Origin: a virus
Taxonomy: Duplodnaviria; Heunggongvirae; Uroviricota; Caudoviricetes
DNA length: 64,000 nt
Reading direction: 5' to 3' (one strand)
Virus record (IMG/VR): IMGVR_UViG_2718218322_000002
Shown: piece by piece, positions 57,001 to 63,000 of the stretch
Position numbering within the stretch: the stretch's first letter is position 1
How the letters are laid out: every line of letters begins with the position of its first letter
Made by a program: the position numbers

Positions 57001-60000
57001 TATACCGCCATTACCGCATTGTGCATGGTACTCGGGTCGCGCTGGCATTCCTGCTCACTTTTCTCATTATCCGCCTGTTTACTATCCCGGAAGGCACCTG
57101 GCCGCTGGTCACCATGGTGGTGATTATGGGGCCAATCTCGTTCTGGGGGAACGTTGTCCCTCGTGCCTTCGAACGTATTGGCGGTACGGTGTTGGGGTCG
57201 ATTTTAGGTCTTATCGCTCTGCAACTGGAGTTAATTTCGTTACCGCTGATGTTAGTCTGGTGCGCGGCGGCGATGTTTCTTTGCGGTTGGCTGGCGCTGG
57301 GCAAGAAACCGTATCAAGGATTATTGATTGGGGTGACGCTGGCAATTGTTGTGGGTTCCCCGACAGGTGAAATTGATACGGCGTTATGGCGAAGCGGCGA
57401 TGTGATCCTCGGCTCTTTACTGGCAATGTTGTTTACCGGTATCTGGCCACAACGGGCGTTCATCCACTGGCGCATTCAACTGGCGAAAAGTCTGACCGAG
57501 TATAATCGGGTCTATCAATCTGCATTCTCACCGAACTTACTCGAACGCCCACGTCTGGAAAGCCATCTACAAAAACTCCTGACCGATGCCGTGAAAATGC
57601 GTGGGCTGATTGCGCCCGCCAGCAAAGAAACTCGTATTCCAAAATCGATATATGAAGGTATCCAGACCATTAACCGCAATCTGGTTTGTATGCTGGAGTT
57701 GCAAATCAATGCATACTGGGCCACGCGCCCCAGCCATTTCGTGTTATTGAACGCGCAAAAACTTCGTGATACCCAGCACATGATGCAGCAAATACTGCTG
57801 AGCCTTGTTCATGCGCTGTACGAAGGTAATCCGCAGCCGGTTTTTGCCAATACGGAAAAATTGAACGATGCTGTGGAAGAGCTGCGTCAGTTGCTGAATA
57901 ACCACCATGACCTGAAGGTTGTGGAAACACCAATCTATGGTTATGTGTGGCTGAACATGGAAACGGCACATCAGCTTGAGTTGCTATCGAGTCTGATTTG
58001 CCGGGCCTTGCGCAAATAATTCCTGAACTTCAGAATCATCTTGCTGCTGCTTCGATTCAGCAAGGATAAAGGGTATGATAGTGATAAGGGATAAAAGCAT
58101 TGTCATCTGCGGCAGCTATGAGTAATGTTGGCCCTAACGAATAGCGGTTGCTTAAACGAATCCGACTCTCACATTATCAGGGGTATAAAAATGGAAACTA
58201 CCAAGCCTTCATTCCAGGACGTACTGGAATTTGTTCGTCTGTTCCGTCGTAAGAACAAACTGCAACGTGAAATTCAGGACGTTGAGAAAAAGATCCGTGA
58301 CAACCAGAAGCGCGTCCTGTTGCTGGACAACCTGAGCGATTACATCAAGCCAGGGATGAGCGTTGAAGCAATCCAGGGCATCATCGCCAGCATGAAAGGT
58401 GACTATGAAGATCGCGTTGACGATTACATCATCAAAAATGCCGAGCTCTCCAAAGAACGCCGCGATATCTCCAAAAAGCTGAAAGCTATGGGCGAAATGA
58501 AAAACGGCGAAGCGAAGTAATTCCTGTTTTATTCAATGAGGGTTGCCCGGCAACCCTCATTGCTCATTGATTCTTATCTGTGTATCACCGTCATCATTCT
58601 CATCTGAGAACCTATCGAAATTAGCGGCAGCCTTCTTCTGTATGCAGCAAGGCAAAAAGTTCTGTAACTCCATTGTTATTAACCGCACTGGTTACTAACA
58701 CGTTGTGCGCTCCAGCTTCCCGTAACCAACATTTCACCAAAGATATTTGTTCCATGCTGGCTAAATCTGCTTTGGTTACTACTCCAATGACCGGGTGATT
58801 CATGGCCCGGTAGGGCGTTTTTACCTCTAATTCCTGCTTCAGCGCTGAGATTCCTGCTTGTTGCCGGAAAAGCAGGCACCTGCCGTCTGAACGGTATCGA
58901 TCCGGAAGCGTATCTGCGCCATATTCTGAGCATACTGCCGGAATGGCCCTCCAACCGTGTTGACGAACTCCTGCCATGGAACGTAGTTCTCACCAATAAA
59001 TAAGCGTCAATACGGTGCTCCGTTGACGCTTACTTTAATCCGTTTTCTGAGCTTAGATTTTTCTGTTCCTACCCAGACCGTGGATTTGGAATTCATTTTT
59101 TGTCAGGTCAATGCTAATCGTTAAAACGGCCATAACGCACCTCCACTGGAAGGTTTATCAGTAATATCCTACCGTTGCTTCATGGTCGGGGCGTCCATTC
59201 CATTATTATCGGTTTTCCTTTCTGTTTATAAATGAAAACGCCAGCTGTATTCAGGCTGGCGTCAGGGGAAATGAAGCCTGTTGAGTGAGATTCACCGGTT
59301 CTGGTGCAGAAGCTGCAGATGGCGCAGGGTAAGGGCATCTTCTCTTGCCTGCTTAATACAGGACAACAGTGCTGTTTCTGTGGTTAATGGCACTATACCC
59401 TGCATCACTGCATTGTCTTACAGCAACTGGTGAGGGCTGGCATAAGTTGCCGGTGTTTCGGTAGAGTCACGGTCATCCACCACGCGGAGTGAATAACCGT
59501 TTTCAGCGGCCTTATTAATCAGTTCAGTGATATTAACACCATCAATGTCAACGACAATGTGCCCCATATCCAGCGCCTGTACGTTAACGCTGTCGGCTTC
59601 CAGTGTCATCATTTCGCCTCCGGATACTTACCCAGGGTAATGTTATTTACCGTTCTGTAATTGTCGCGGGTCATCAGGCCGGTCGCCCTGCGAGCCCGGA
59701 GGATATCGATGCTGTTTATTAACTGAGAGCGGGTACAGGCGCTGAATCCCGGCTGGTCGGTAGCACCAGCGCGTATTTTTCCACGAGAAAGTTCACCGCA
59801 TCACACAGTGAAATGCCTGCCTCAATATGCTGCTCAATCACACGTTCATCGGCAAAAGGTGTGTCATTCAGTGTGAGGCCATAGTGCTGGTCCAGCAGTC
59901 GGGACAGCAGTATCTGCCAGATTTCAACAGGAGACGGGCGAGAACTGGCCGCCTGCCCGGGTAATACAGGTAATGTTTTCATACTGAAGATTTTCCTGAT

Positions 60001-63000
60001 ATGCAGATATAAAAATGGAAAAGTGGCGTGGTGAAAACACCAGGCCGTAGCAGAAGGCTATTCTGGAGAGTTAATTTTTCATTTCGGGCGTCGGATAAAC
60101 AGCCAGATAAACGTAACCACAACTGCTGAGGGTATCGGCTTTGCAGGTCAGCCCTTTTGCATACAGCGTGACGGTATGCTGATGGCGGGGATTCAGTTCA
60201 CCGCTGGTGAGCATGAGTTCCAGTTGTTTCATCAGCAGCGGAAAGGCCTGGTCCGGGTGGTACGCATCTGCATCGCTGAACAGGCCTCTGATACCGGCGC
60301 GGTCGGCAAGGTAATGCAACCGGTTACCCTCCTGCACCAGACGTGCCCCGAAACAGGGCGTCACGGTGCAGGGCAGCCCCCACCAGGGGCGGTCGTGATT
60401 GTCGTCGGGAAGTGTTGTCCCGGGGAGTGTGTCTGACACGATAAAATCCTTACAGAAAATCGGCTAAGAATGGTCCGGTAGTGGCGATAATTCTGCTCAT
60501 CAGAATTCCCACTCAGTTCAGGGTGACGCTCATCAGCCGGACATACGGACCAAAACTGTCCTTACGGCGTTCAGCAAACACGGCCAGCACACCGGGAATA
60601 TCCTGCACTTCACGACCGGTATACGCTTCAGCACTGCCGTGCCAGCGGTATTTACCGGTACAGAACGGAAAAAGACGGGATGTCGGATGTTGTTGGTGAA
60701 TACGCATGGCTTCACCACGGGTGATAATTTTCATAATGGGATACCTCTGAAGACAGAAGATAAAAGTGAAAACAGGTGTGATGTGGTTGTGACGGGTTAA
60801 AGCAGACCATGTTCGGCAAAGGAGAAAACCTGGTTGCCACCGACTATCAGATGGTCCGGCACCCGGATATCTACCAGGCCCAGTGCCTGTACCAGACGTT
60901 CGGTGATAAGCCGGTCTGCCTTACTGGGTGTGACTTCACCGGACGGGTGATTGTGTGCCAGTACCACGGCAGCGGCATTGTGGTACAGGGCGCGTTTAAT
61001 CACTTCCCGGGGATGGACTTCCGTGCGGTTGATGGTGCCGGTGAAGAGGGTTTCACCGGCAATCAGCTGATTCTGGTTGTTCAGATACAGCACCCGGAAC
61101 TCTTCACGCTCCAGTCCCGCCATGTTCAGAATCAGCCATTCCCGTGCTGCACGGGTGGAGGTGAAGGCCACACCGGGTTCATGAAGATGGCGGTCCAGGG
61201 TTTTCAGGGCCCGTTGAATGAGGCTGCGCTCGCCGGGCGTCATTTCTCCGGGCAGAAAGGAAATCTGTTGCATTATTCCGGCCCCTTTCAGTCAATGATG
61301 CGCATAATGGCGCTGCCTTCCGGATGCTGCAGGGCGTAATCCCGCAACCGGTAATAATGGACCGTCATGGCATAATTCTCCGTACGACAGGCATGATGGC
61401 TGTACGTCATCAGACAGGCGGCAATACCGGCGGCTTCCGGGCTCATTTCAGCGCGGTTACCGTTCATGGCATTGAACAGTACCCATGTTTCGTCATCATC
61501 ATCATCCGGTTCGGGGGCCATAAATGCCCCGCCGTTGTTCAGGGTGTACAGATTCCAGATACCACCGCAGTAGTCTTCGCACAGACGGTCCATCCAGCCG
61601 AAGACACGGGGCTCCAGGGTGACCCACTGTGGAATGAGGCCAAAATGCTGCGGCCAGAAGCTGATGCGCTGTTCATCAGGGACGAGGCTGGCAACCAACT
61701 GAGGCGGATTATTCTCTGGTGTTGTAGCTGAATAAATTGTGGGGGTATTCTGAGAAACGGTTTTCATGAGATAACTCCTTAAATAACAAATAAATGTGTG
61801 TTTTTCGGGAACGAAAGCTGAATGATTCCCTCACTCAGGGAAACGGCATCAGCGCAGGCTCTCCAGCATCGTTTCTGCCATCACCCACAATGCGCGATTG
61901 AGCTTAATGTCGGTATCAATGCTGTGAATGGCCCGGGTATGGATACGTTTTCCTTTTGCACTGTGACCGGAAATCCCGCCTTTCAGCATATTCTCCTGGA
62001 TGGTCTGATATGCGCTCCACAGGTCCTTACCGTAATCCTCCCGGCGTCGCGGCGTCAGAATGTCGGCGGTGGTGACGGGCTGATGTTCGTCACCATAACG
62101 GTAAGTCAGTGCCGCCTGTGCCAGCGCCTGGCGTGCCGGTTGCGGCAGGACCAGCGACTGCATGGCATCACGCTTCTCCTCTATCCGGTCAAACACGCCC
62201 ACCACCTCGTAAGCCCCTTCGATAACTTTCTCCACTACATTTCCCCGGTGTGGAACACGCACTTCCCCCAGAGACTGGCCACAGACGCACCCGTTCTGGC
62301 AGACGAACCTGAAGTAACCCGGCAGCATCTGGTAGCTGGAGGTACCGTCATGAGAGTTGAGCAGAATAATTTCAGGGACATGTTCTCCGTTTATCTCTCC
62401 GGCCCGCCGCAGACGCAGCATGTGTTTTGTGTATCCCCGGCGGCCCGGGTCGCGCACACGGGTCTGGCAGGCGAAGAACGGCTGAAAGCCTTCCCGCTGC
62501 AGATTTTCCAGGACGGTAATGGTGGGAATGTACGCATACCGTTCACTGCGGGAGGTGTGCCGGTCTTCCCCAAAAATACTGGGTACATGGCGTATCAGTT
62601 CTTCATGTGTCAGCGGACGGTCACGGCGTATCTGGTTTGCAGCATAACCAAAACGACTGGCTAATCGCATACTTTGCTCCTTATCGGTGGTTAAGATTTA
62701 CTGGTGCAATAAATGAAAAAAGCCGCGTCTCCCGGAGAAGACGCGGCCTGACGGGTGAAATGAATAAGGTTTATTGTCTGAGAGGCCTTTCACTGGCGAG
62801 CCACGCATTAAGCGGCTTTCCGGTAACAATGGCTGGGGCTGTATTTACCTTTGATATTAATAATGTGCAGAGAAACGCATGGTTTACTCCTTAGATTTTA
62901 AGTTTGTCCTGGGCTACACCGACAGGTTTTCCGGATGTGTCGATGACTCCTACCGTCGGTACGCCATTTTTGATTTCGAAGAACGGTTTGTTGCTACCTG

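Follow-up and report, generated by a model that had tools for sequence, protein, structure and literature searches.

A frequent one-base deletion in cbtA beside an open cbeA antitoxin gene at the CP4-44/SpLE2 island of Escherichia coli

The type IV antitoxin CbeA protects the cell by stabilising the assemblies formed by FtsZ and MreB, not by binding its toxin CbtA, and it also counters other inhibitors of FtsZ (PMC5624674). CbeA and the related antitoxins YafW and YfjZ are each able to neutralise all three of the paralogous toxins of E. coli K-12 (PMC5371832), and a passage of PMC7167474 that cites Mine et al. 2009 on ccdO157 describes how toxin-antitoxin systems on the E. coli chromosome decay by inactivating mutations. 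Here we consider a module of this family in a 64,000-nucleotide stretch of DNA recorded as a virus (IMG/VR record IMGVR_UViG_2718218322_000002; hereafter the window), which carries the genes cbeA (yeeU), cbtA (yeeV) and yeeW on its minus strand. The antitoxin gene is open and the toxin gene has lost a single base; most likely this type IV module of the CP4-44/SpLE2 island is decaying in the ordinary way, with the toxin going first.

The orthologous locus of K-12 is the CbtA/CbeA module of CP4-44, which has the same neighbours (yeeS-yeeT-cbeA-cbtA-yeeW, remnants of yoeD and yoeF, tmaR (yeeX), yeeA and sbmC) and the same spacer and ATGA overlap as the window. Alignment of window positions 59400-60450 with K-12 MG1655 CP4-44 gave 1052 columns containing three substitutions and one gap, a one-base deletion; the gap is the sole difference within cbtA, where there are no substitutions. 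The K-12 gene reads GTGCGTACC where the window reads GTGC-TACC, that is, codon 74 (CGT, Arg74) is without its G, and cbtA (59609-59982, minus strand) measures 374 nucleotides (nt) against 375 nt in K-12. The point of deletion lies between window bases 59763 and 59762, with the gap column mapping to 59763. A preliminary description of this DNA had placed a one-base loss near 59763 and proposed a comparison with K-12 cbtA, and the single gap at codon 74 bears this out. The same description had CbtA reading correctly for 80 residues, which needs correction to 73: in a tblastn search residues 1-73 of K-12 CbtA match 59982-59764 and residues 75-124 match 59761-59612, each with 100% identity and in different frames. 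It was also right that the authentic C-terminus is fully encoded, in an untranslated remnant at 59612-59761, but not that it lies in the +1 frame, since this frame is one base back and ribosomes could enter it only by a shift of -1 (or +2). The open reading frame (ORF) that begins at 59982 instead runs through 73 authentic and 14 out-of-frame residues to a TAA at 59719-59721, giving 87 amino acids (aa) from a frame at 59719-59982. The Pfam family PF06755 (CbtA_toxin) matches this 87-aa ORF over positions 1-73 of 112 (E 1e-37) and the 50-residue remnant in the other frame over positions 75-112 (E 3e-13). With 87 codons, the gene does not have the uninterrupted frame of some 124-125 codons, with its conserved C-terminal block, of a complete toxin, and on sequence grounds it belongs to the CbtA family by descent, as a pseudogene, rather than as a full-length protein. 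The authentic stop of cbtA, TGA at 59611-59609, shares the ATGA of 59609-59612 with the yeeW start, ATG at 59612-59610, as the preliminary description had it, and the same 4-nt overlap is found in the RefSeq coordinates.

The antitoxin gene, by comparison, was described as intact and is so. Located at 60071-60439 on the minus strand, cbeA is an open, uninterrupted frame of 122 codons with a GTG start, and its product covers positions 1-100 of the 101 in the Pfam profile PF06154 (CbeA_antitoxin; E 9e-52). Residues 1-122 can be aligned with the solved structure of YeeU (PDB 2H28), with mismatches solely at positions 62 and 108, which are P62 (base 60255) and G108 in the window. Between the two genes is a spacer of 88 nt (59983-60070) that is equal to that of K-12 and 100% identical in all loci compared except that of O111, which has one single-nucleotide polymorphism (SNP). 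The pair therefore has the adjacency, the order (antitoxin upstream) and the spacing of a functional type IV module, but not an intact toxin ORF, and no second copy of CbtA was found within the window by tblastn.

Loss of the single G from codon 74 causes translation from the normal start to end after 87 residues. The product so translated is without residues 74-124, which include the nearly invariant SIDILRAR-ATGLM block. Among 28 full-length members of the family (124-125 aa, 66-95% identity, from Escherichia, Klebsiella, Citrobacter, Enterobacter, Serratia and Raoultella) R74, T75, D76, G79, S86, L88, S91-R98, A100, G102, L103, Y109, I115 and G118 are invariant. Because so conserved a third of the protein is lost, we infer that the toxin has lost all or most of its activity; the preliminary description had likewise taken the toxin to be inactivated with retention of the antitoxin, and all RefSeq records examined call cbtA a frameshifted pseudogene. 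A full-length homologue modelled with AlphaFold2 (mean predicted local distance difference test score, pLDDT, 66.6) has helices at residues 18-34, 46-54, 59-69, 91-101 and 106-116 and a linker of low confidence at 73-89. In this low-confidence model the frameshift falls at the start of the linker, the last two predicted helices are lost and the N-terminal part, with three helices, is kept. No solved structure of CbtA was found.

The deleted allele is widespread. At least 40 complete genomes of O157:H7 (the best 40 records, all of O157:H7 type), sequenced independently by different groups and methods, match the 1051-nt cbeA-cbtA-yeeW region with 100% identity; Sakai, EDL933, TW14359, EC4115 and Xuzhou21 are among them. 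Among 5426 complete E. coli genomes, the exact 81-mer centred on the deletion occurs in about 1487 records and the exact intact 82-mer of K-12 in about 1776, so that the deleted allele is present in about 27% of complete genomes, and the exact 87-aa product is encoded on at least 1000 public contigs. In rows sampled evenly down the ranking for the 81-mer, carriers include O55:H7, O111:NM and O20:H12 and isolates from chicken, pig, cattle, pangolin and humans. The NCBI prokaryotic genome annotation pipeline (PGAP) labels the gene 'frameshifted' in all RefSeq records examined: EDL933, 4276 (locus L010, 9609-9982, 'cbtA, frameshifted'), O111:NM, O20:H12, M172-1, PSS-08-1 and O55:H7 DEC5D. In the first six of these the frameshifted cbtA occupies the same chromosomal site, adjoining tmaR-yeeA-sbmC, and in the four non-O157 carriers inspected the gene at this site is an 87-codon stump labelled 'frameshifted' by PGAP. 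In Sakai the stump is annotated as ECs_2806 (yeeV), 'toxin of the YeeV-YeeU system'. The lost G is outside any homopolymer (GTGC[G]TACC), the sole run of five or more identical bases in cbtA being an A5 at nt 203-207. Given these observations we hold with high confidence that the frameshift of cbtA is a genuine, inherited pseudogene allele that is old, common and previously annotated; as the RefSeq 'frameshifted' pseudogene and as ECs_2806 of Sakai, the allele of the window is already known.

How the allele came to be so common is suggested by its distribution. Since the lost base lies in no repeat, a single mutational origin is indicated: the deletion would have arisen once, later transmission being vertical and also by homologous recombination or gene conversion from island to island. 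The carriers compared differ from one another by 0.85-2% in the flanking core gene yeeA but by no more than one SNP in cbtA, and in five genomes checked outside O157:H7 the deleted allele is at the same chromosomal site. Movement between islands is suggested by the paralogue adjacent to the locus of enterocyte effacement (LEE) in O55:H7 DEC5D (L013, 2568-3194, near espF), which has the same 1-nt deletion within sequence of CP4-44 type. The copy that Sakai carries at the LEE-adjacent place, ECs_4539, is open and differs at 36 positions over the same stretch, and near its 3' end the DEC5D paralogue returns to the state of ECs_4539. To judge from the sequence, this pattern looks like the signature of a gene-conversion tract, by which the dead allele would have been copied into a toxin gene without an antitoxin. 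The simplest account of these data would be that the deletion had one origin and was later passed on by homologous exchange, both from strain to strain and among paralogous islands. The core gene yeeA that neighbours the locus in O111:NM FWSEC0005 (L004, 4784-5843) is itself annotated as frameshifted, with 1060 rather than 1059 nt.

The open state of cbeA may be explained in two ways: first, loss of the toxin would be without cost while prior loss of the antitoxin would be harmful, and cbeA would therefore stay open as the module decays. Second, a CbeA that acts on FtsZ and MreB instead of on its own toxin would still buffer the cell against paralogous toxins of the CbtA type, and it is probably because of this mode of action that the antitoxin persists. 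The remark in the preliminary description that toxin loss with antitoxin retention is a common form of decay agrees with the published account of decay in chromosomal E. coli toxin-antitoxin systems (PMC7167474). Two substitutions separate the CbeA of the window from that of K-12: L62P, a change peculiar to the O157 type, and D108G, for which K-12 is the odd one out. Position 62 is Leu in 2H28, 2INW, YfjZ, ECs_1405, K-12 and four other strains with the frameshift allele, and Pro in the O157 type, a change that could bear on the activity of the antitoxin. The exact 81-mer containing the L62P base (60255) occurs in at most about 446 records as against 1487 for the frameshift; therefore the toxin frameshift is the older and wider of the two changes and L62P the later and narrower.

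The O157:H7 strain Sakai carries three modules of CbtA/CbeA type in complementary states. In SpLE1 (L012, 14278-15561) the antitoxin ECs_1405 and the toxin ECs_1406 (124 aa, of which 109 residues are identical to K-12 CbtA) are both open. In SpLE2, the orthologue of the window locus, the antitoxin is open and the toxin frameshifted. In SpLE4, which adjoins the LEE (L015, 8600-9794), the toxin ORF ECs_4539 is open (124 aa) and the antitoxin is cut by ISEc31, which leaves only its C-terminal 50-odd codons. Because toxins of the CbtA type are thus open elsewhere in Sakai, and because CbeA acts by stabilising its targets and neutralises across paralogues, an orphan CbeA could still be useful in that strain.

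Several points weigh against this account of a dead toxin and a useful orphan antitoxin. Substitution of R15 in CbtA abolishes binding to MreB and substitution of F65 abolishes binding to FtsZ (PMC5624674), and both residues are present in the 87-aa stump. The stump would also retain the three N-terminal helices of the model, with the break in the linker, and partial activity is therefore conceivable, on a model of low confidence. Hardly any secondary decay is seen in the remnant or the stump, as is expected if the allele is young or has been homogenised by recombination, but this leaves little power to prove neutrality. No experiment on the 87-aa product was found in the literature. Furthermore, the protection that CbeA may offer against paralogous toxins in O157 is extrapolated from experiments in K-12, while the O157 protein has L62P, and the inventory of paralogues is drawn from Sakai, not from the strain of the window.

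One alternative is that the 87-aa product is functional, as an inhibitor of FtsZ only or as a modulator of the paralogous toxins, in which case the module would be changed but still alive and cbeA would be kept in order to counter it. In favour of such a role, R15 and F65 both lie within residues 1-73, the helices predicted at 18-34, 46-54 and 59-69 would be kept with the break falling at the start of the 73-89 linker, and the allele is very common with an 87-codon ORF that is unbroken in all carriers examined. Tan and colleagues are said to have reported, in an abstract of 2011, that C-terminal truncations of YeeV led to cell elongation. Nevertheless, a functional stump is unlikely for several reasons: the most conserved block of the family is gone; the model on which the retained helices rest has a mean pLDDT of only 66.6; and retained positions that are invariant in the family are substituted in frameshift alleles, namely D40N (418 contigs), V19I, L38M and, in M172-1, L38Q. 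These substitutions would suggest relaxed constraint at invariant positions of the stump, in numbers too small for a formal test, and given that frameshift alleles differ by at most one or two SNPs there is no statistical power to detect relaxed selection on the remnant. A full-text search of the literature for truncated CbtA or YeeV, or for a pseudogene or frameshift of cbtA, returned only a paper on a Yersinia plasmid that has no bearing on the question; the truncations discussed by Heller 2017 are of FtsZ and not of CbtA, and searches for the locus tags ECs2805/2806 and Z3161-3163 gave only irrelevant matches. That the product, with its three N-terminal helices, R15 and F65, serves specifically as an attenuated inhibitor directed at FtsZ, or as a modulator of full-length paralogues, is likewise unlikely. 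If it were true, an active stump would help to explain the frequency of about 27%, the copying of the allele into a second locus and the open cbeA alongside.

A near-full-length toxin could in principle be made at a low level by a programmed -1 ribosomal frameshift or by transcriptional slippage. Codons 68-69 (GAA AAA) contain the A5 run, 14 nt upstream of the deleted base; a -1 slip at this run would yield a product of 124 aa in which only residues 70-74 are altered, and the surrounding RNA is able to form a local stem-loop. There is, however, no slippery heptamer of the form X XXY YYZ anywhere in the 87-codon frame, and A5 is too short for efficient transcriptional slippage. Furthermore, the intact K-12 allele has the same stem, which is therefore no adaptation to the frameshift, and the deletion is the derived state, with the gene uninterrupted in other members of the family. 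Given that the frame holds no slippery heptamer and that a search of positions 58000-62000 for Rfam elements, at E values up to 0.1, returned none, recoding was rejected as very improbable. An artefact of sequencing or assembly, which would leave cbtA intact in the real genome and which the preliminary description had allowed for, has in its favour only that 1-nt indels are the commonest type of assembly error, and it is refuted at the level of the population, with next to no chance of being correct, by the identical O157:H7 genomes, the counts of the 81-mer across diverse serotypes and hosts and of the exact 87-aa product, and the position of the missing G outside any homopolymer.

The surroundings of the module are those of the right end of the CP4-44/SpLE2 island, with yeeS-yeeT-cbeA-cbtA-yeeW adjoining tmaR(yeeX)-yeeA-sbmC. 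Window positions 54747-64000 are 99.97% identical to Sakai and comprise the right end of SpLE2 together with yeeX, yeeA, sbmC and dacD. Upstream of cbeA, the genes of the CP4-44/SpLE2-type module span 60513-62670, all on the minus strand and identified from ORFs, annotation and Pfam: yeeT (DUF987; 60513-60734), yeeS (RadC-like JAB; 60797-61273), an antirestriction gene (61288-61767) and a DUF932 gene (61849-62670). The upstream island content is not that of K-12, where flu and yeeR are found; the window shares its DUF932 and antirestriction genes with SpLE2 of Sakai. A scan of 59200-61400 for promoters and terminators was uninformative, with three promoter-like sites against 1.9 expected.

Downstream of cbtA, yeeW (59418-59612, minus strand, 64 codons; Pfam DUF5983_N) encodes 64 aa both in the window and in K-12 and matches only the N-terminal domain of DUF5983 proteins, while its paralogues ECs_1407 and ECs_4540 are full length at 163 aa. 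Because ribosomes that translate the frameshifted gene stop 107 nt upstream of the yeeW start, coupling of yeeW to cbtA through the ATGA would be lost; yeeW would nevertheless keep a Shine-Dalgarno-like motif of its own, GGAGG at 59621-59617 on the minus strand, 4 nt upstream of its ATG. Past yeeW, the stretch 58600-59400 holds fragments of a DUF957 gene, an IS66 transposase and an EutP-like gene, and the short yeeW fits a generally eroded end of the island, of which the IS66 and EutP-like fragments are also part.

Collinearity with Sakai stops at 54747, a junction also present in 169 complete genomes, for example that of O157:H7 strain 4276. The remainder of the window (1-54746) is a lambdoid prophage inserted in sbcB, of which only the first codons are left at the junction (about 54747-54790). 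The prophage carries, on the plus strand, the Shiga toxin genes for the stx2 A subunit (about 17978-18937) and for a B subunit of Stx2c type (18949-19218), downstream of the Q antiterminator gene (16851-17339) and of two tRNA genes that are annotated in strain 4276, and it has nleG7 near 53 kb. The Sakai-like sequence of 54747-64000 and the stx2c prophage identify the host as an O157:H7 strain that carries an Stx2c phage at sbcB. Three copies of an insertion sequence of the IS3 family (IS629/IS1203-like) lie within the prophage, at 633-1953, 4961-6270 and 14858-16167. The third copy, which shares only about 96% identity with the first two, is missing at that place in strain 4276 and cuts into the 3' end of ninG, so that the ninG ORF ends at 14860. 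One of the other copies splits the gam gene in strain 4276.

For discovery these results matter little, since the observation is correct, ordinary and previously known. What is mildly notable is the frequency of about 27% reached by one deletion, its presence at two paralogous loci, the complementary states of the modules in Sakai and the L62P change in CbeA. As an example from nature of a type IV module that decays toxin first, the locus is clean and very common, and inventories of the toxin-antitoxin systems of O157:H7 and of many further E. coli should leave entries for an 87-aa 'YeeV toxin', ECs_2806 among them, out of the tally of functional toxins. The paralogues of Sakai, found in two other states (one intact pair, and one open toxin with a truncated antitoxin), could serve to test whether an orphan CbeA protects against paralogous toxins.

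Compared with known systems, the module of the window differs from its K-12 orthologue in a cbtA product of 87 rather than 124 aa and in the two substitutions in CbeA, and it is the same allele, 100% identical over cbeA-cbtA-yeeW, as ECs_2806 of Sakai and the 'cbtA, frameshifted' of RefSeq, the window strain differing from Sakai elsewhere by its Stx2c prophage in sbcB. YkfI/YafW of CP4-6 and YpjF/YfjZ of CP4-57 in K-12, and ECs_1405/1406 and ECs_4539 in Sakai, share the Pfam families and gene order of the window module, but unlike the cbtA of the window these paralogues have toxin ORFs of full length. Decay has gone the other way in SpLE4, with the antitoxin cut and the toxin ORF open. In the case of ccdO157 the toxin is said, after the work of Mine and colleagues, to have been lost first. 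As described in the passage of PMC7167474 that concerns it, ccdO157 is, like the locus considered here, a chromosomal module at a conserved site that is degenerating within the species by inactivating mutations. The two nevertheless differ in kind: the antitoxin of the type II system ccdO157 binds its toxin, whereas the antitoxin of the window acts on the targets of its toxin, and an orphan CbeA would accordingly keep a generic activity.

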